Shown here one piece after another: positions 3,324-35,127 of a stretch of DNA of 45,030 bases. A model generated the notes under the pieces. It was not told where the DNA came from and made no database searches. It saw nothing but the letters and a program-made list of their open reading frames with translations. How positions within the stretch are numbered: the first letter of the stretch is position 1; the number at the start of each line of letters is the position of its first letter. The position numbers and the translations under genes are program-made. Source of the stretch: a virus (lineage: Duplodnaviria; Heunggongvirae; Uroviricota; Caudoviricetes); IMG/VR virus record IMGVR_UViG_2851949629_000008, positions 1 through 45,030 of that record. The stretch is one strand, 5' to 3'.

Positions 3324-3923
3324 TCAGAATTTATAACCGACACCCACGATAAAACCGTCAGTGCGCCAGTCACCACTGCCGGAGCCTTCATAAGCAATAT
3401 CAATGGCCACGGATTCGGTCGGGTTAAACTGCACGCCAGCCCCCCACGCCAGAGACGTGTTACTGTGGCGACCATCATCACTTGCGGTCAGCACATCGTG
3501 CGTTTTCCCCTTGTTGTCAGTTACGCGGAGATAATCCCCGGAGAAAGTCGAAACACGGCTGTAAGCCACACCCGCCATCGCATATGCGCTGAACCACTCA
3601 TTCACGCGCACAGATGGCCCCGCCATCATGCTGAACCAGCGGTTACGCACGGAATCTTCATGCCAGCGGGTATCACTGTAACGGGTAATCTGGCGATTCT
3701 TGTCTCCGGAATAACTGAATGACGTCACCAGCCCCAGCGTGTCCGTAAATTCATAACGGTATTTCACGTTAATGCCCTTCAGGTCATCGTTGCCGGGCAT
3801 ATCAGTATGGGACTGAATATACCCGGAGCTTAGTGTGGACTGATGCTCTGCTGCACTCGCTGGCGTACCAGCGGCGACCAGCCAGACTACTGCAGACAGA
3901 ATAACAGCACATAATTTACGCAT
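3324..3923 (-). CDS. lom: Lom outer membrane protein (Ail/Lom family)
   Basis: [12 protein letters not shown]... signal peptide, beta-barrel-like C-terminus ending GYKF, located after J as in lambda. Confidence 0.9.
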
Positions 3924-3990: not shown

Positions 3991-6900
3991 TCAGCTGATA
4001 CTGATGCCTGCGGTGGCTTTCTTCATCACCACAACCAGCAAATCGCTGATACTTGCTGTGGGATACCAGTTATTTACCAGCCATGCTGACACCGAAAACT
4101 CCAGTGTCATGTGACCGTGACCGGCAGGCATATCAATAACGCCACTGTAAATCAGCGTATTATCCAGCGCGGTACGGTTATAAATTTCAGCACCGTTTTT
4201 CCGCACTATCAGACGGCATGAGGAGTAAATATCAGTATGCTCTCTCTCATGCTTAGCGCCACTGAATGCCACCGCCGGAATAACAATTTGCCGGTCAAAC
4301 GGCTGATCGTCATAAACCCTGACGGTAATGGTCCTTGATGGCCACCGCTCCGGTGCTCGGGAGTCACGGGGGAAAGCTTTGCCCACTGTTTTAACGAGAT
4401 CGCCTTCAATCTGGTGCGCGGACAGTTTTCCCAGAACCCGACAGTTCTCGTTAATCGTGACGTTGTTGAGCGTCCCTGAGTTCGCATTCACGTTACCGCT
4501 GATATCGGCATTTTTAGCGGTCAGCTTTCCGTCCGGTGTCAGGGAAAATGCCGGCGGATTTCCACCGCTGGTAATGGTGGGAGCCGTCAGGCGTTTCAGG
4601 AACACGTCGTTCATGAATATCTGGTTGCCCTGCGCCACAAACATCGGCGTTTCATTCCCGTTTGCCGGGTCAATAAACGCGATACGGTTAGCGGCAACCA
4701 GAAACTGGCTCAGTTTGCCTTCCTCCGTGTCCTCCATGCTGAGGCCAATACCCGCGACATAATGTTTGCCGTCTTTGGTCTGCTCAATTTTGACAGCCCA
4801 CATGGCATTCCACTTATCGTTGGCGTCCTTCCACTCTTTCGAAAACTCCTCCAGTCTGCTGGCGTTATCCTCCGTCAGCTCGACTTTTTCCAGCAGCTCC
4901 TTGCCGAGATGGGATTCGGTTATCAGGCCTTTGAAAAAATCCAGGTAACCTTCCGCATCATCGCTCGCCCGACCGACGGCCTCCACGAATGCCGATTTGC
5001 CAACGGTGTTCACACTGCGGATATAAAAGTAATAATCATGGCCCGGTTTGATATTGATACTGGCGGCTATCCAGTACAGCCCCGTGCCAAGGTAGCGGGC
5101 TGTGGTTTCAACCTGCCTGATATCAGCAATCCGTTTTTCCGAGAACCAGAACTCAAACTGTACCGTCGGATCATAAACCGCAAGATGCGGCGTGGCGGTT
5201 ATCTGAAAATAGCCCGGCGTCAGCTCAATCCGCGACGGTGCTGCCGGTGCGGCAATCCGGAACGATACCGATGCCGGATCGCCCTGCTGTCCCCACGCAT
5301 TTACCGCCCGGACTGTCAGCCTGTAATTTCCTGGCGCCAGTTGCGTGAAGCGGTATGTAGTTTCCGTCGTCCTGGCCGTGCTGACCAGCCGCTCACTGCC
5401 ATCGTCCGCTGTTACGGTCAGACGGAGCAGGAAGCTCACGCCCTTCACCACCTTCGGTGTGTCCCATCGCGCCAGCACCTGATACTCCCCGCTGTCTGCG
5501 GTGACTTCGGCAGTCAGGTGCTGCACCGCTGGCGGCGTGACACCATTCACCGTGCCGCTCTGGTCGCCGTCAAAGTGCGCCCCGTTATCCACGATGGCTT
5601 CTTTTTCCGGTACATGCTGCACGGCGGTGATGGCATACGTGCCGTCGGCGTTCTCACGGATACTCACGCAGCGGAACAGGCGCTGGCGCAGCGTCGGCAG
5701 CTTCAGCCCCCACACGCTGTATTCAGCAACGCCGTCAGGAACACGGCTCACTTTCACCTTCACGCCGTCGGTGACGGACTGAACCTCCACGCTGACCGGA
5801 TTGCCACTTCCGTCAACCAGGCTTATCAGCGTGGTACCGGAGGATGGCAGCGTGATTTCACGGTCGAGCGTCAGCGTCCGGGTCTGGCTGTTTACCGCCA
5901 GCACGCGCCCGCCGGTGCTGATACCGGCATAGTCATCATCACAGATTTCAATGACATCGCCCGGCACATGGCGAAGCCCTTCGGCACCCACGCTGAAGTC
6001 CACGGTCTGCGTTTCCAGCAGTTCTGTTTTAATCAGCCACAGCCCGGCTCGGTGCGCCTGCCCCCGACTGGTACAGCCAAACGCATCCATCTTCGTGACG
6101 TTACGACCGTAACGGGCAATGGCCTGCGAGTCCTCCACAAGCTCTGTTGCCGTCTCCCAGCCGTTATCCGGGTCAATCCAGTTCACCTCAACGGCATTAT
6201 GGCGGTCTTTCAGGGCGCTGAAGCTGTAGCGGAACGGCGCGCCATCATCCGGCATCACCACATTACTGCGGTTATAGGTCCACACCTTATCTGATGGTCG
6301 GTCCTGCACGAACGTCAGCGTCTGCCCGTTCCATACCGGCATACAGCGCATCGCCGAGCAGAAATCACTGAGCACATCCCACGCCTTACGCTGCGTGGTA
6401 AGCCAGGCATTACAGGTGATGCGCGGCTCCGTGCCGCCAAAACCGTCCGGCACTGACTGGTCGCAGTACTGGCCGATGACATACAGCGCCCATTTATCCA
6501 CATCCGCCGCACCAAGACGTTTCCCCATGCCGTAGCGCGGGTGGGTCAGCATATCCCACAGACACCATGCCATGTTGTTGCTGTATGCCGGTTTAAACGT
6601 CCCGTCCCAGATACCGCTGTATTGCCGCGTCTGCGGGTTATAGTTCGATGGCACCTGCAGAATGCGCCCGCGAAGATGATAATTACGGCTCACCTGCTGG
6701 CTGCCGAACTGTTCCGAGTCCACCTGCACGCCGACCAGTGCCGTGTTCGGGTAGCACTGTTTCACATCGATGATTTCAGTGTATGACGACCAGAGCGTTT
6801 TGTTCTGCAGCTGGTCTGTGGTGCTGTCCGGCGTCATCCTGCGCATCCGGATATTGAACGGGCGCGGCGGCAGGTTACCCACCACCACCGAGGCCAGATA

Positions 6901-7386
6901 CTGCGAGGTGGTTTTGCCCTTAATGGTGATGTCTTTTTCCGTCACCCAGCCACCATTACGCTGTATCTGAACCAGCAGGCGAACTTCCGACGGATTCCGG
7001 TCCCCCTTTGAGGTGGTTTCCACCAGTGCCTGCACGCCGAAGGTAAAACGCAGTCGGTCAATGTTTGCCGACGTGATGGTCCGGGTGATCGGCGTGTCGT
7101 ATTTCACTTCCGTACCCAGCACCGTCTCGGAGCCGGAGGATTCAAATCCCTCCGGCGGTGTCTGCTCCTGCTCACCGGCCCGGAACACCACCGTGACGCC
7201 GGAGATGTTGGTATTCCCCTCACTGTCCAGCACCGGCGTACTGTTCAGCAGCACGCTTTTTAATCCCTCCACCGGACCTTCAACCGGCCCTTCGCTGATG
7301 GCATCGATCACACTCAGCAGCTGCGTGGACTTCAGGTTGTCCCTCGCTTCGCGCGGGGTATGCCCCTTACTGCTTCCTTTACCCAT
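3991..7386 (-). CDS. J: Tail tip host specificity protein J (1131 aa)
   Basis: Near-identical over most of its length to lambda J as recalled ([14 protein letters not shown]...); the C-terminal receptor-binding region diverges. Confidence 0.95.
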
Positions 7387-7400
7387 TCCTCACACTCCAT

Positions 7401-7427
7401 AAACAACAAAGCCGCCCAAAAGGCGGC
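7401..7427 (-). terminator. Rho-independent terminator after the lipoprotein moron
   Basis: Hairpin GCCGCC-caaaa-GGCGGC followed on the minus strand by TTTGTTGTTTAT. Confidence 0.5.
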
Positions 7428-7452
7428 TCATGAGTTACGGCAGGATTAACTA

Positions 7453-7791
7453 TTATTTACATGCATTAACACTATCAGCAAAAATTTTTGGCGTTAATGC
7501 TGGTACACGTTCATAAAGAGTAAAACTACTGCCATTTCCTGCTTTTTTGATATCAAGCACAACATCATATCCCCCCATAGCCTGTGGAACTAAAAGGCTT
7601 ACCCCATTCTCAATAGGAAGGGATGTTATAGGTGTTCCATTACCAGCCCATTGTCTGGATATGCAGCCTGACAATTCATCAATATTTTTTAATGAATTAC
7701 CTTCCATTACAGGTTTTCCGGATTTTACGTAATCCAAAGATTTACATCCTGTTAAGGCAATAATCGTGCAGAATAAAATCGTTTTGTTCAT
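7453..7791 (-). CDS. Small lipoprotein (moron) inserted between tail genes I and J
   Basis: MNKTILFCTIIALTGC has signal peptide plus lipobox Cys; looks AT-rich by eye; ATG at 7791 (track start 7803 is TTG); own downstream terminator. Confidence 0.6.
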   Translation of the reverse strand: MNKTILFCTIIALTGCKSLDYVKSGKPVMEGNSLKNIDELSGCISRQWAGNGTPITSLPIENGVSLLVPQAMGGYDVVLDIKKAGNGSSFTLYERVPALTPKIFADSVNACK

Positions 7792-7863
7792 ATAGCTAAC
7801 CAATAGAATAATTATCAGTGTTCGATATAAATATTAAATCAGTTAGAACATGAGTAAATAATA

Positions 7864-8505
7864 TTACCGCCCAATTACCACAACCTGACCACCATCCCCT
7901 TCATCTGCCGTGCTGATCTCCTGAGATGCCACACGTGACCCCACGCGCATTTCACCGTACAGAACAGGCAGGACATTGCCCTGGGCAACCATGTTATCCA
8001 GTGAGGAGAAATAGGTGTTCTGTTTGCCGTTATCCGTTGTCTGTGTACGTGGAGTTTTGGGTTTAGGAGCCAGCATCTGTGCGACACCACCAAGCGTCAT
8101 CGCTGCCCCCATAGAAAAGAGAATGTCACTGAAAGCGATACTGATCCCCGGCATCCAGATTGCCGTAGCAATCAACGCCGCACCCAGCACCGCCTGAAAC
8201 ACACCGCCACTTTTTGCTCCCGCAAGACGCGGCACGATGTGGATCACGGCACCATTTGCCAGCGGCTCATTAAGACGGGCAGATAATTCGGTTTCTCCTG
8301 CATCCCGCCCGGCAATCCGTACCTGATACCAGCCATCGCTCAGTTTCTGACGAAACGCCGGGAGCTGTGTGGCCAGTGCCCGGATGGCTTCAGCCCCCGT
8401 TTTCACACGAAGGTCGATGCGGCGGCCAAATCGTTGCAAATCCCCGTAAAGGCAGATGCGTGCCATGCCCGGTGACGCCAGAGGGAGTGTGTGCGTCGCT
8501 GCCAT
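7864..8505 (-). CDS. I: Tail assembly protein I
   Basis: Position between K and J, overlaps K 3' end as in lambda; ubiquitin-like N-terminus typical of gpI. Confidence 0.85.
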   Translation of the reverse strand: MAATHTLPLASPGMARICLYGDLQRFGRRIDLRVKTGAEAIRALATQLPAFRQKLSDGWYQVRIAGRDAGETELSARLNEPLANGAVIHIVPRLAGAKSGGVFQAVLGAALIATAIWMPGISIAFSDILFSMGAAMTLGGVAQMLAPKPKTPRTQTTDNGKQNTYFSSLDNMVAQGNVLPVLYGEMRVGSRVASQEISTADEGDGGQVVVIGR

Positions 8506-9146
8506 TTGTCGGTATACCTCTCTCGTTTGCTCAGTTGTTCAGGAATATGGTGCAGCAGCTCGCCATCACCACAGTAAATAGCGGCATGATTCGGCACCGA
8601 TGAACCAAAGCAGCACAGCAGCACATCGCCCGGCTGCGCCGCTGACAACGGCACCTGATACAGCCCCGTTGCCTCCAGATTATCCAGATAGAGATTCTGA
8701 CCGTGACGCCACCAGTCATCCTCACGATGAAAGTCCGGCATCTCAATCCCCGCCAGATGGTAAGCATCCCGGAACAGTGTGTAACAGTCCGTCACCCCGT
8801 ACTCAAAGCGCCGCCCGGTGAGATGCGGCACACAGCGGAACTTGTGAATCGCCCCCCGGCAGACCAGCCACCACGGCAAATCGCTCTGCACCTGTAGCCG
8901 CCGGTCAGCCTCACTCAGCCAGGGCAGACCACCGGGGTGGCTGTGGACCAGCGCCACAATCTCACCCTGCATCTCTGCCTGCAGCCAGTCCTCCGGAGCC
9001 ATCCGGAAATAATCCTCCGGCTCACCGGAAATATTCACGCAGGGAAAATATCTTTCCCCCTCCGGCGTTCTCACCACGAAGCCGCACGACTCCGCTGGCG
9101 CACATCGCCGGGCGTGCGCCAGAATCGCTGATTCTGTCTCTGTCAT
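8403..9146 (-). CDS. K: Tail assembly protein K (JAB/MPN plus NlpC/P60-like)
   Basis: Contains HSHPGG (JAMM-like) and a Cys/His NlpC-P60-like C-terminus; the canonical lambda K would start at the internal Met at 9002 (MAPEDWLQ...), the longer ORF includes the MPN N-terminus. Confidence 0.85.
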   Translation of the reverse strand: MTETESAILAHARRCAPAESCGFVVRTPEGERYFPCVNISGEPEDYFRMAPEDWLQAEMQGEIVALVHSHPGGLPWLSEADRRLQVQSDLPWWLVCRGAIHKFRCVPHLTGRRFEYGVTDCYTLFRDAYHLAGIEMPDFHREDDWWRHGQNLYLDNLEATGLYQVPLSAAQPGDVLLCCFGSSVPNHAAIYCGDGELLHHIPEQLSKRERYTDKWQRRTHSLWRHRAWHASAFTGICNDLAAASTFV

Positions 9147-29843: not shown

Positions 29844-30197
29844 ATGAATAAAACAATTTGTTTTCTATTGGTTTTTGCAATTTCAGGATGCGTCAACCCT
29901 TATAACTACAGAGAAGAACAAAATGTTATTATCTCGTTCAAAACAAATTCTCCACCACAAGAAATACAAGAATGCATTCTCAGTGAGTGGCAGCGTACAC
30001 CTCTCTTAGCCACTATCACGTCTCAAAAAATTGGCAAGTATTACAGCGTATTAGCGGTTGCAGATAATGCCGACATTTATAAGTTGGCAGATGGTTCTAC
30101 TATCATTGATTTTTATTCCCTTCGAGGGGTCTTAGACCCCACCAATGGGAAAAGCAAGAGGATTCAGGGAATTAAATCATGTATTAGCACTAAATAA
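29844..30197 (+). CDS. Small lipoprotein, paralog of the 7453-7791 lipoprotein
   Basis: MNKTICFLLVFAISGC lipobox; shares N-terminus, a central E-x-x-C-I-x-x-x-W motif and C-terminal Cys with the other lipoprotein; AT-rich; terminator hairpin at 30271-30300. Confidence 0.6.
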   Translation: MNKTICFLLVFAISGCVNPYNYREEQNVIISFKTNSPPQEIQECILSEWQRTPLLATITSQKIGKYYSVLAVADNADIYKLADGSTIIDFYSLRGVLDPTNGKSKRIQGIKSCISTK

Positions 30198-30301
30198 TCA
30201 TCAGTTCGAACCCAGAAACAGCCAAATAGATTTTATCTCAGGTGCGTTGAGGATGCCTGACACATCAGAGGTGGCGAGGGATTTCTCCCTCGCCTGGTTT
30301 T

Positions 30302-30557: not shown

Positions 30558-31409
30558 TTAAACACGAGGCATATAGGTCTGATTCCGATATTCAATTGGA
30601 GTCAGACCTTTTAATTTCAGGCTAATTCTTCTGCTGTTGTAGTATTCAATATATTCCGTAACAGCATCCTTCAGTTCGCTTATATTACTGAACTCATCAA
30701 GATAAAAACACTCCGACTTTAAGGTTCCAAAGAAACACTCCACCACAGCATTATCCAGACAATTGCCTTTTCTGGACATGCTTTGTTTAATACCATGTTC
30801 TTTAAGGATATTTTGATATCTTCTCATACGATACTGCCATCCCTGGTCAGAGTGCAGAACAGGATGCTCGTGAGGATTAAGCTTTTTGAATGCCTGATCG
30901 AGCATATTCTCAACCATGTTCATCACTGGTCTTTCCGAAAGGCTGTAAGAAATAACTTCGTTGTTGAAGAGATCTATTACTGGAGACAAATACAGCTTGC
31001 GCCCATTGACTGCAAATTCAGTAACATCGGTAACCCACTTCTCGTTTGGCCGCGTAGCCTTGAAATCTCTTTGGAGAACATTAGGGGCGGTTTGCCCTAC
31101 CTCTCCTCTGTAAGAGCGGTATCGCTTGACCTTAATCGCTGCTTTAAGTGAGAGGGTTCCCATCAGGCGCTGAACAGCTTTATGGTTAATCTGTTTCCCT
31201 TCTCGATGAAGAGACAGCGTTACCCTACGGTATCCGTATCGGCCTCTATTCTCGTGATAAATCTCACTAATACGCTTTTTAACGTCCGCATACTTGTCAG
31301 GCTTGCTGAGAGCCTTTAGATGATAATAAAACGTACTGCGCGGTATCTCCGCAGCCCTGAGAAGCTCATCAAGAGGATAAAACTGCCTTAGCTCGTTGAG
31401 TACTTTCAC
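30558..31409 (-). CDS. insK: IS150 transposase OrfB (InsK, DDE)
   Basis: 283 aa IS3-family integrase-core ORF. Confidence 0.9.
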
Positions 31410-31927
31410 TTTTTCGTGGGATGAGCTAAGGCTTTCAGCTTTTTTAGATACATAAGCCGCGTTTCAAGAAATCGAACTTGCCTTTCAAGATCCTCAATGC
31501 GTCGGTCTTTTGACAGCTCCAATGCTGATGCCGCTTTTTCTGGATCAACTGATATTGCAATGTTTCTTTTGGTGCCAATCTTGAGCGCGCGTAAACCAGC
31601 TTCTCCGCGCTCTTCATAGACCTTCAGCCACCTGGCTACAGAACCACTACCAGCAAGCATAAAGTGAGCAGCAGCCTGATTAAGGGACATGTGCTGCTCG
31701 ATCACAGCTTTCACGACCTTAATACGCAACTCTGGATCAGCACTAACGCCTTTAGGTTTGGGAATTAAACCTTTTTCTCCATGTTTTTCATAGAGGGCAA
31801 CCCATGTCCTGACCTGGGTTCGGGGGACACCAAAACGTGCCGAGATGATCCTGTAACCATCATCAGTTGTGAAGTAGTGATTCACGACTTCAAGGCGCTT
31901 TTCAAAAGGGTATTTTGGCTTTGACAT
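31406..31927 (-). CDS. insJ: IS150 OrfA (InsJ, HTH)
   Basis: 173 aa; overlaps orfB. Confidence 0.9.
   Translation of the reverse strand: MSKPKYPFEKRLEVVNHYFTTDDGYRIISARFGVPRTQVRTWVALYEKHGEKGLIPKPKGVSADPELRIKVVKAVIEQHMSLNQAAAHFMLAGSGSVARWLKVYEERGEAGLRALKIGTKRNIAISVDPEKAASALELSKDRRIEDLERQVRFLETRLMYLKKLKALAHPTKK
31422..31428 (-). promoter_or_regulatory. IS150 -1 programmed frameshift heptamer AAAAAAG
   Basis: Minus-strand A AAA AAG at the orfA/orfB overlap, as expected for IS3-family transframe transposase. Confidence 0.6.
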
Positions 31928-32236: not shown

Positions 32237-33377
32237 ATGGAAATTAAGCAAGTTATCGTTCATGAACTAATTAAAGAAGCAAAAAAGGATTTTGATTTTT
32301 CTAAGCCGTATCAGCTTAGATCCACTCCTCTCGATAAAACCAATCCAATTGTTATAAAACTTATTCAAGACATTTCATCTTTATATGGAACCAAAGGCAA
32401 TTCTGCACATTATGGCGTTTTTAAAGAGGAGAAAACAGAACAAGGGCCTGTGCCATCAATATTTGAAGAGTATTCTCAGTCAGAGGATAACATTAATGAA
32501 AAGTTTGTGCCTTTTTCTATTGAAGTGATGAAGCAACTTGTAAAAAAAGCCAAAGAAGAACCTTGGTCATCTGGTGGTTTTATTGTGTTTTGTGACTATA
32601 TTGTAAATAACAATAAATTCTTTTTAATTGCAATGATTAAAAAGAAAAATGGTGTTACTATCAGCAACAAACTCGAACCTGAAGAAATGATCCATTTGGA
32701 TCTATCCAAAATACACCAAGCAGCAAGAATAAATTTCAATCTCTACCAACAATATAAAACTGCTGATGAGTCTGAAAAAATTGACTTAAGTTATCTAAGT
32801 TTCGTAAGTAAAGGAGTGGGTCAATCCACATCAGCATATTTTATTGCAGCAATAGGATGCGACAAATCACTTGCAGCAGCAAAAGCCACAAAAACTACCA
32901 ACTGTCGCAAAACAATTTTTTAACCAAAAACCAGAACTTAAAGCATGTGCCAATAGATTTAAACATGACGTTATTGCATATTTAGACACACAAGCAGCTA
33001 AAAATTTGTCAGCCCGATTGAGTGATATTGAAGTAATTGCAGCACGTCACATGACAAATTTAGATGAGTCTACCAAAGAATCTTACACTCACGAATTAAT
33101 TCTTTTTTTAAATAGTGAAAATGTGAGAATCCCAACTGAATTTGTTATCAGTAAACGGGCGTTGAAAGACATTAAAAACATCACCTTTAAGACTGATGAG
33201 ATTGGATTTAATTTTGACAAGTCTCTCCTTGGAGTGACAGCTGATGATGATGTGTGGTACGATGAAACAACTGGAAGATTATCATTTACAAACTTACCAG
33301 CTGAATTTAAGGCTAAACTAAGCGCTGTGGTAAAAGAAAATTTAAAAATAAGGGATAGTGGAAAAGAAAATGGCTAA
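32237..33377 (+). CDS. NdpA/YejK-like (NA37 family) nucleoid-associated protein homolog, interrupted by an apparent +1 frameshift near 32889-32893
   Basis: N-terminus MEIKQVIVHELIK and GGFIVFCDYIV align with E. coli YejK as recalled (INQIALHQLIK, GGFVLFCHYRY); track splits it into 32237-32923 and 32871-33377 (the latter with a TTG start); AT-rich. Confidence 0.55.
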
Positions 33378-34590
33378 TTTATCAACGGTTGTAGATTTTT
33401 ATAGAGCATCATCGAAGCCCCAATTCGACGGACGTTCTTTTTCTGCAACTGTTGAAATAAATAATAACAATCAACGTTTGGTAAACTTGTTAGTAAATTC
33501 ACATAAAGCCTACGGTTATTTTGAAGATGTTGATATTAATAATGAGTTCATTGACGAAGACGATTTAAAATCACACCCAATTAAAATTGGAGATAAATTC
33601 TCATACACTTACATATCCCCTAAAAATGGAGCAGAACGTTTCTATAACTCAATTCAAGAGTTCCTTTGTATAAACTCACTCAAGAAAGGTGTAATTCCTA
33701 AAGAGTATTACATAATCGATGAGGATTTTCATCCGTCTGATTCAAGTAAACCGGACGAAATTATAAAAATCGAGAAAATTTGTGCAATTATTTCTTCCCT
33801 GGCTGAGATTGCGCACTTTCACGATACAAAATCGGAATCTTCAAATTATCGTTTAGTTTTCGTGAAAGATTCTGACGCAAAATCAACATCTATTATTTTA
33901 GAAACGTGCATTACACCTAAGATGCTCAATATAAATGACATTGATGATGCTATCATCAAGAGTCTTTTAGATGTAAAAAACGCCCAAATCCCCCATCAAG
34001 CAGAAAAAACAGGTATTTTCAGGAATACCATAGTGGAGTTTATTCTCGATAACAAATATGATTTTGAAAACCTAATTTGCCATTGGGATAAATTTGTAAA
34101 GCTATTTGAAAATAATTTATCCACGTATATGAGTGGTTTTTCATTCCATAAGGCACGAAAAGAAATTGCGAAGTCTGAAGCAGAGTTTGCTGAAAAAATC
34201 TCAAAACTTATTACTGATTTGACGACAAAAGTATTATCAATCCCTGTGTCTTTACTGGCATCCTTCGGGATTATAAAACTAACATCAAGATCTGAAATGT
34301 TACTCGTTTTATTAGGTGTATTGTTAAGCTCACTTATTTTATATATGGTATTACTCAATCAGGATAAACAATTAAAACATATTTATCATGCTAAAGATAT
34401 AGCATTTATGCCTTTTCTAAAAAACAATGAAAATTATCCAGAAGACCTTAAGAAGGACATTAATGAGGCTCTATATGAACTATCAAAGAGCCAAACCAAA
34501 TGTGATAATACAATAAAGTTATTTATGTATTTGGCTTGGCTACCAAGTTCTATTGCAGCAGGAATATTTCTTGTGAAGATTTTTATTTAG
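33358..34590 (+). CDS. Large AT-rich protein with two C-terminal transmembrane helices (candidate membrane effector)
   Basis: 410 aa, no recognised domain; hydrophobic segments LLVLLGVLLSSLILYMVLL and LFMYLAWLPSSIAAGIFLVKIFI; overlaps upstream gene by ~20 bp. Confidence 0.5.
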   Translation: MEKKMANLSTVVDFYRASSKPQFDGRSFSATVEINNNNQRLVNLLVNSHKAYGYFEDVDINNEFIDEDDLKSHPIKIGDKFSYTYISPKNGAERFYNSIQEFLCINSLKKGVIPKEYYIIDEDFHPSDSSKPDEIIKIEKICAIISSLAEIAHFHDTKSESSNYRLVFVKDSDAKSTSIILETCITPKMLNINDIDDAIIKSLLDVKNAQIPHQAEKTGIFRNTIVEFILDNKYDFENLICHWDKFVKLFENNLSTYMSGFSFHKARKEIAKSEAEFAEKISKLITDLTTKVLSIPVSLLASFGIIKLTSRSEMLLVLLGVLLSSLILYMVLLNQDKQLKHIYHAKDIAFMPFLKNNENYPEDLKKDINEALYELSKSQTKCDNTIKLFMYLAWLPSSIAAGIFLVKIFI

Positions 34591-34599
34591 CTCTAACAG

Positions 34600-35127
34600 T
34601 TAGAGCATTAATACTCCCTCCAATACTCCCATCGCTGCTTGTATTTTTTTTCTAATAGTCCCATCCGCACATTTCTTTCTTTTTGCGATCTTTCTCAAAG
34701 AAACGCCTATTACAAAGTGGGCAACAATTAACTCATATTCATCTATTTTATATTGTCTGAGTCTCAATATCCACTCATCAATCACTCGCCCTTCATCATC
34801 GCTGCTCTGGCGACGCAATTTTTTACCATGAGGCACAACATCTTTATATTTATCAGCCACTTGCTGCCAGTTGATAGAACTATTTCCAGCTACAGCCCAA
34901 GCTCCCCAACAGTCCAAAATATCATATATATTAGCATTGCTATCTACCTGTTTTTTATATTCTTTTTTGAAGCGAGCAAGAAGCATCCTGGCCATCGTTA
35001 TTATTTCTATACTTGTAACTGATTCATAAGCATCAGGAGAAATAATCCTCCCATCACTTAATGCCCTTTCACTAAGATTTGCTATTTCCAATAATCGTTC
35101 TTTAGTTATTTCCATTATTATCTCCAC
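34600..35127 (-). CDS. Antiterminator Q-like protein (QuuD/phage-82 type)
   Basis: LDCWGAWAV...NWQQVA and LIVAHFVIGVSLRKIAKRKKCADGTIRKKIQAAMGVLEG resemble DLP12 QuuD as recalled. Confidence 0.6.
   Translation of the reverse strand: MEIIMEITKERLLEIANLSERALSDGRIISPDAYESVTSIEIITMARMLLARFKKEYKKQVDSNANIYDILDCWGAWAVAGNSSINWQQVADKYKDVVPHGKKLRRQSSDDEGRVIDEWILRLRQYKIDEYELIVAHFVIGVSLRKIAKRKKCADGTIRKKIQAAMGVLEGVLML

Follow-up and report, generated by a model that had tools for sequence, protein, structure and literature searches.

Cor (phages phi80, N15, HK022 and mEp167) and Llp of phage T5 are small phage outer-membrane lipoproteins encoded beside siphovirus tail or host-range genes, and another accessory lipoprotein gene of lambdoid prophages, bor, is located near the lysis genes. 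The recognized features of a moron (Juhala/Hendrix) are extra DNA between neighbouring genes, deviant base composition, a promoter and terminator of its own, and expression from the repressed prophage (PMC3594210). HK97 gene 15, the founding moron, occupies the slot between tail genes T and H, and its product gp15 mediates superinfection exclusion (Cumby et al. 2012, summarised in PMC3594210). Tail-operon morons encoding small envelope proteins are known already, and the gene described here is a new instance. It belongs with gp19 of phiKO2, a linear-plasmid prophage of Klebsiella oxytoca, in the protein family PHROG 914; the GenBank note on gp19 reads [quoted passage not shown], so that the family has already been flagged as a putative moron in the phiKO2 record.

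The DNA analysed here (the window) is the whole 45,030-nucleotide stretch of the IMG/VR virus record IMGVR_UViG_2851949629_000008 and constitutes a complete lambda-like prophage, with the integrase at the right end and the tail genes on the minus strand. The gene for tail assembly protein I (7864..8505, minus strand; PF06805, E 1.6e-24) and the gene for tip attachment protein J (3991..7386, minus strand; six GpJ Pfam domains) form the upstream and downstream flanks of an intergenic gap of 477 bp (7387-7863) that has 36% GC and contains one minus-strand ORF. J is followed directly, as in lambda, by a Lom homologue, i.e. an Ail/Lom-family outer-membrane protein gene (3324-3923, minus strand; PF06316, E 8e-120), and by a side tail fibre gene. 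The ORF (7453..7791, minus strand; stop codon 7453-7455) encodes 112 amino acids (aa) including a 15-aa signal peptide and is separated from the I stop codon by a 72-nt AT-rich leader (7792..7863, minus strand). Its start codon is ATG; a TTG four codons upstream would make a product of 116 aa. The product is identical to RefSeq entry WP_001332187.1, which is named "hypothetical protein". The GC content is 0.34-0.39 over 7400-7900 and 0.36 in the lipoprotein gene alone, compared with 0.55-0.64 in the flanks, and family homologues in other hosts likewise have 0.37-0.46 against about 0.5 in their flanks; the insert thus shows the deviant base composition of a moron. The ORF, its lipobox and the low GC content bear out the preliminary description of a 112-aa lipoprotein gene in AT-rich DNA between I and J.

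According to the lipobox rule, a positively charged n-region is followed by a hydrophobic h-region and the motif [LVI][ASTVI][GAS]C, whose Cys falls at about position 15-35. The N-terminus MNK-TILFCTIIA-LTG-C16, read by eye, satisfies this rule (PROSITE PS51257-type): the n-region contains Lys, a hydrophobic core and the lipobox L-T-G-C16 follow, and Lys and Ser occupy positions +2 and +3. The signal peptide and lipobox, MNKTILFCTIIALTG followed by C, were read from the sequence at 7744..7791 (minus strand; Cys16 codon 7744-7746). An alignment of 40 family members shows no variation at the lipobox Cys, Cys43 or Cys111 and almost none at Pro27, Trp48 and Gly63, and Asp at +2 is found in none; among 11 close homologues G15-C16-K17-S18 is invariant. 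Lipidation at Cys16 is predicted from the established rules, and Lys at +2, together with the lack of Asp at +2 in the 40 members, predicts Lol sorting to the outer membrane. Cys43 and Cys111 probably form a disulfide bond in the mature domain.

The ORF is intact in 59 of the 62 gene copies in the fetched loci. Fourteen intact alleles differ at 10 of 75 synonymous and 6 of 261 non-synonymous sites (pN/pS about 0.17), and the gene is under purifying selection. An exhaustive profile search collected 121 cluster representatives, nearly all of 105-125 aa. By our own arithmetic, an open frame of 112 codons at 36% GC has a chance of about 3e-4 per frame; a chance ORF was rejected in view of purifying selection and family conservation. 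An o-spanin was also rejected as a candidate: no i-spanin partner overlaps or adjoins the gene, which is outside the lysis-gene region.

Alignment with lambda, vB_EcoS-689R5 and mEp332 delimited the DNA that is extra with respect to insert-free lambdoid phages to about 434 bp (7430..7863, minus strand). Homology to these three phages reaches the last I codon and restarts at a hairpin, a spacer of about 20 nt having been replaced; by megablast, the junction gave a two-piece match to insert-free phages, spanning only 234 bp. The extra DNA between otherwise adjacent genes that characterizes a moron is therefore present at I-J. The preliminary description was right about the insertion relative to lambda, but I and J do not abut in that phage, the lambda I-J spacer being 60 bp (J02459.1, 15445-15504); similarly, its figure of about 480 bp for the insert fits the gap of 477 bp, but only about 434 bp are extra relative to lambda.

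The hairpin at the insert boundary is GC-rich and has a T-rich tail, resembling a terminator, and is located just upstream of the J ribosome-binding site (7399..7429, minus strand). Its 9-bp stem and loop are at 7429-7409 (GAGCCGCC-TTTT-GGGCGGCTT, then the T-rich tail), with a folding energy of -21.4 kcal/mol (z -4.8). The lambda I-J spacer contains the hairpin GAAACCGCC-tgc-GGGCGGTTTT, in which an A-T pair corresponds to a G-C pair in the window; this compensatory change indicates that both hairpin arms are homologous between lambda and the window. In phiKO2 a hairpin between I and J is annotated "terminator, putative" (positions 6007-6029 of the extracted phiKO2 locus). Because insert-free lambda has the homologous hairpin, the window hairpin was resident at the junction and was not brought by the insert. 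The terminator that the preliminary description assigned to the lipoprotein gene as its own is accordingly unlikely to be so, given this homology and the presence of one at I-J in phiKO2 too, although homologues in other slots do have hairpins of their own. The lambda I-J hairpin may be a landing pad for moron insertion or a relic of it.

In database searches the window protein matched phrog_914 ("unknown function") with E 7.3e-33, residues 1-112 aligning to profile positions 1-118, and phrog_914 was also matched by the homologues from Fraca, phiKO2 (gp19, E 2.5e-23), phiAH14a and ST846-OXA48phi9.1. The Fraca member is 31% identical to the window protein and 48.6% to phiKO2 gp19, and the best BFVD match of the window protein is the Pseudomonas phage phiAH14a protein, also a family member. 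Pfam yielded no family for the window protein at E up to 0.1 and nothing relevant for 40 family members; searches of NCBIfam and of PDB sequences were empty, and the PADLOC-DB v2 anti-phage defence HMMs gave no family at E up to 0.1. A profile search of genome contigs found one locus only, in Kluyvera, and a profile search with a family subgroup alignment found one viral locus. No mention of WP_001332187 or phrog_914 was found in the literature. We conclude that the ORF is very likely a functional accessory lipoprotein gene, i.e. a moron, of the PHROG 914 / phiKO2 gp19 family.

The distribution of the insert in E. coli is patchy. Of 5,426 complete E. coli genomes, 4,085 were hit by a junction-spanning query, at about 7,670 places, but just 333 genomes contained the whole insert; the insert alone as query hit 348 places in 336 of the 5,426 genomes, always with at least 95% identity. 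The insert is missing from about 95% of the E. coli I-J junctions with near-identical I and J. Among 85 isolated-phage records sharing the I-J junction none has the insert, and tblastn of the lipoprotein against 50,697 phage records at E 1e-5 gave no match; distant homologues appeared when the threshold was relaxed to E up to 10. The insert-bearing strains include APEC O1, the neonatal-meningitis strain CE10 and O104:H4 C227-11, in which the lipoprotein gene has locus tags out of sequence with those of the adjacent genes (e.g. APECO1_RS31530 among RS069xx), a hint that it was missed in the original annotations and added in later re-annotation. The insert is consequently not universal in its tail module (348 against about 7,670 places), the circumstance, coupled with a structural role, that the preliminary description had named as incompatible with its proposal.

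This distribution bears on the possibility that the product belongs to the tail tip as a structural or assembly component, e.g. as a partner of gpI. The gene usually adjoins I, whether the slot is I-J or, in relatives, K-I, and in phiAH14a a lipoprotein gene and a second I gene (I'), the latter 79% identical to the tail-module I, were copied together. The patchy distribution nevertheless excludes an essential structural role: the gene is absent from lambda and from about 95% of the E. coli I-J junctions, some relatives occupy the T-H slot, non-tail or chromosomal sites, and an exported, lipid-anchored protein would be away from cytoplasmic tail assembly. A tail structural protein was rejected on distribution; the gpI-partner version is extremely improbable, and a structural role or a junk ORF is highly improbable.

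Relatives of the gene were found in three intergenic slots of lambdoid tail operons, each ending at a hairpin, and the family thereby illustrates the mobility of morons. The E. coli copies (at least 92% identity) are always arranged I-gene-J, in 58 IMG/VR loci, behind at least two unrelated V-G-T-H modules. The K-I slot is occupied by homologues of 48-59% identity in Klebsiella and related prophages and by more distant family members in phages Fraca, phiKO2 and ST846-OXA48phi9.1. The T-H slot, between tail chaperone T and tape measure H, contains homologues in Enterobacter/Citrobacter prophages. Distant family members lie close to antirepressor, helicase and recombinase genes at non-tail sites. 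The K-I gap is a cargo hotspot: in one locus (L070, about 8410-8890) a second, unrelated lipoprotein gene directly follows the family member, and in two others (L095 and L096, 2300-7000) the lipoprotein gene is preceded by islands of about 4.5 kb that contain Arc repressors along with Bro-N/KilA-N/ANT antirepressor-like genes.

The phiAH14a member (AH14a_p33) is located in the early region; its GenBank start is too far downstream, the true ORF having a full lipoprotein signal peptide, and it is followed by the I' copy (L086 6962-7948, L101 24239-25310). To judge from sequence comparison, the lipoprotein gene and I' are a transplanted tail fragment, and since the pair was copied from the tail, its early-region position says little in favour of lysogenic expression. 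At its true K-I position, phiAH14a has a different lipoprotein gene, of 140 aa. In Shimwellia blattae (CP001560.1; 7001-7339 of the extracted locus L097) a 38%-identical family member is apparently not in a prophage; it has a YidB-like gene on one side and ecotin on the other, with copC/copD/yebY nearby. Such a chromosomal homologue indicates that the fold can serve a housekeeping envelope role, a point against the preferred explanation given below. The Shimwellia homologue also recalls the YebO/gp15 pair of host gene and moron.

The window itself carries a divergent paralogue in the nin/Q region (29844-30197, plus strand), of 117 aa with the lipobox AISG-C, which matches phrog_914 with E 8.5e-28 and the family profile with an hhalign probability of 96.7% and is 27% identical to the I-J copy. 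It has a GC content of 0.355, has its own terminator-like hairpin and T-run (30273-30294), and gave no tblastn match in isolated phages. Being antisense to the flanking phage genes, it is not transcribed from the late operon and must have its own transcription. Beside it is an IS3-family element (rve, HTH_21; 30558-31927, minus strand). Next to this element, and upstream of the Q antiterminator gene (34600-35127), is a very AT-rich block (GC 0.30-0.35; 32237-34590, plus strand) with genes for an NA37-like nucleoid-associated protein and a 410-aa protein without Pfam match, which probably represents additional cargo.

The question of when the I-J copy is expressed is connected with another explanation, that the product serves as a helper late in the lytic cycle, produced only along with the tail genes and acting in the dying cell, where it would keep progeny virions off receptors in debris or outer-membrane vesicles or block superinfection in the latent period. 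Sparing progeny virions from receptors in cell debris is also the second role ascribed to T5 Llp. No sigma-70-like promoter on the minus strand met the criteria of a consensus scan, and the lack of a detected promoter of its own in the window fits such a helper; the best promoter-like hexamers in the 72-nt leader, picked by eye, have 8 of 12 matches (TTTACT-17-AATATT or TTTAAT-16-GATAAT), and the Shine-Dalgarno sequence of the gene is weak. In all the tail-module slots found, the close homologues run in the direction of the late tail operon, and in the K-I slot their distance of about 30 nt from K leaves no space for a promoter while their Shine-Dalgarno sequences are strong, an arrangement that fits co-transcription with the late genes better than lysogenic expression. 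Against a purely late role, every family homologue in every tail slot is followed by a GC hairpin and T-run abutting the ribosome-binding site of the next gene, and terminators after all homologues are a classical argument for non-antiterminated transcription, i.e. lysogen expression; the argument is weakened because lambda and phiKO2 have the hairpin without the gene. The antisense paralogue, transcribed on its own, likewise speaks against the late helper, as does the lack of linkage between the lipoprotein gene and the J receptor-binding type described below. A Salmonella prophage transcriptome paper and a telomere-phage lysogen proteome paper contained nothing on the lipoprotein gene. We regard the late helper as quite unlikely.

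Up to about aa 1000 the window J shows 96-100% identity to its lambda counterpart; at the receptor-binding end the values drop to 43% and 31%. The diverged C-terminus is encoded at 3991-4390. This C-terminal type is the commonest in E. coli prophages, occurring in 3,377 genomes against 336 with the insert. Lipoprotein alleles that do not differ from each other occur together with at least four J C-terminal types, which are 13-59% identical to one another, and this argues against a mask of the phage's own receptor in the manner of Cor or Llp; an own-receptor mask was rejected on this ground. The allele associations and the genome counts thus give no sign of the coupling to one receptor that marks Cor and Llp.

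With these points considered, we propose that an AT-rich cassette of about 430 bp was acquired horizontally, its place being after the I stop codon and before the hairpin already resident at the junction, and that its lipoprotein would be processed by Sec/Lgt/LspA to a mature part of about 97 aa with a compact alpha/beta domain. Its Lys at +2 would direct it through the Lol pathway to the outer membrane, where it would be neither a virion nor an assembly component. In its most likely role it would alter the envelope of the lysogen or infected cell and so impede further phage infection, at a target other than the receptor of the phage's own J tip, e.g. tail-tip docking or periplasmic DNA passage. 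Expression late in the lytic cycle would result from Q-antiterminated read-through of the tail operon, and expression from the repressed prophage is plausible. By analogy with the known systems, phage exclusion is a tentative assignment of function, with the chances somewhat against it; the overall explanation, an exclusion-type moron lipoprotein between the I stop codon and the resident hairpin, has in our judgement nearly an even chance of being correct.

The structure of the protein was considered in connection with a further explanation, namely a lysogenic-conversion or host-fitness factor unrelated to phages, Bor- or Lom-like, in which the lipoprotein expressed from the prophage would shift adhesion, the tolerance of envelope stress, or resistance to serum, colicins or antimicrobials. 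An AF2 model of the window protein (pLDDT 84) predicts a helix-strand-helix-four-strand-helix domain, and among solved structures the closest fold is that of Flpp3, a Francisella lipoprotein deposited as a "virulence determinant", which would suit such a factor. The likeness to Flpp3 / DUF3568 of Francisella tularensis is limited to 6-11% identity, and the window protein has no Pfam DUF3568 match; matches to its fold class extend to DUF302, KA1 domains and the N-terminal domain of BamC, and the Flpp3 likeness is therefore at the level of the fold only and carries no functional information. A host-fitness role is further favoured by the Lom homologue (PF06316) directly after J, which places envelope-conversion cargo in the same module, by the occurrence of the insert in the extraintestinal or outbreak pathogens APEC O1, CE10 and O104:H4 C227-11, and by the chromosomal homologue beside ecotin in Shimwellia. 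On the other side, the sequence is related neither to Bor/Iss nor to any Pfam family, the consensus scan found no promoter, and the close relatives are concentrated in siphovirus tail modules across genera, which is unexpected for a general fitness factor. We consider a role unconnected with phages unlikely.

If the preferred reading, phage exclusion or envelope remodelling, is true, the PHROG 914 lipoproteins would form a new family beside Cor, Llp and Bor, and would be relevant to phage-therapy host range, the gene occurring in roughly 6% of complete E. coli genomes, those of APEC O1 and O104:H4 C227-11 among them. A broader conjecture is that they constitute a widespread, unrecognised Gram-negative class of superinfection-exclusion proteins that act from the outer membrane or periplasm without receptor masking. 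By analogy with the Gram-positive lipoprotein Ltp, such a class might act on the conserved opening of the siphovirus tail tip or on tape-measure-mediated DNA passage. It would explain the tail-tip placement by I or K, the independence from the J type and the two paralogues, which would have different specificities; we judge it very unlikely to hold in this general form.

Among the known systems, phiKO2 gp19 is the closest: it and the window protein belong to PHROG 914, both are about 111-112 aa long with a lipobox, and both are encoded in a lambda-like tail-tip module with a hairpin following, gp19 between K and I and the window gene between I and J. Lambda Bor / Iss resembles the window protein as a lambdoid-prophage accessory lipoprotein of about 100 aa but differs in genomic position; the window protein is without any Pfam match, and the Pfam Bor model in particular gave none at E up to 0.1. 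As regards Cor, the tail region of phage Fraca has both a PHROG 914 family member and a Cor gene, and hhalign of the family profile against Fraca Cor aligned only 30 columns, i.e. the signal peptide and a few residues; no match of the window protein to T5 Llp appeared. HK97 gp15 is a small envelope protein from an extra, compositionally deviant cassette in a lambdoid tail operon, like the window insert, and its T-H slot is the one used by the Enterobacter/Citrobacter homologues of the window protein (PMC3594210). Each has a chromosomal bacterial relative, YebO for gp15 and the Shimwellia homologue for the PHROG 914 family. The two differ in that gp15 is an inner-membrane YebO-like protein with a demonstrated promoter, prophage expression and exclusion phenotype, whereas the window protein is a predicted lipoprotein. 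What is notable in the present system beside these relatives is the use of three alternative slots, the occurrence of two paralogues in one prophage and the hairpin that is common to insert-free phages.
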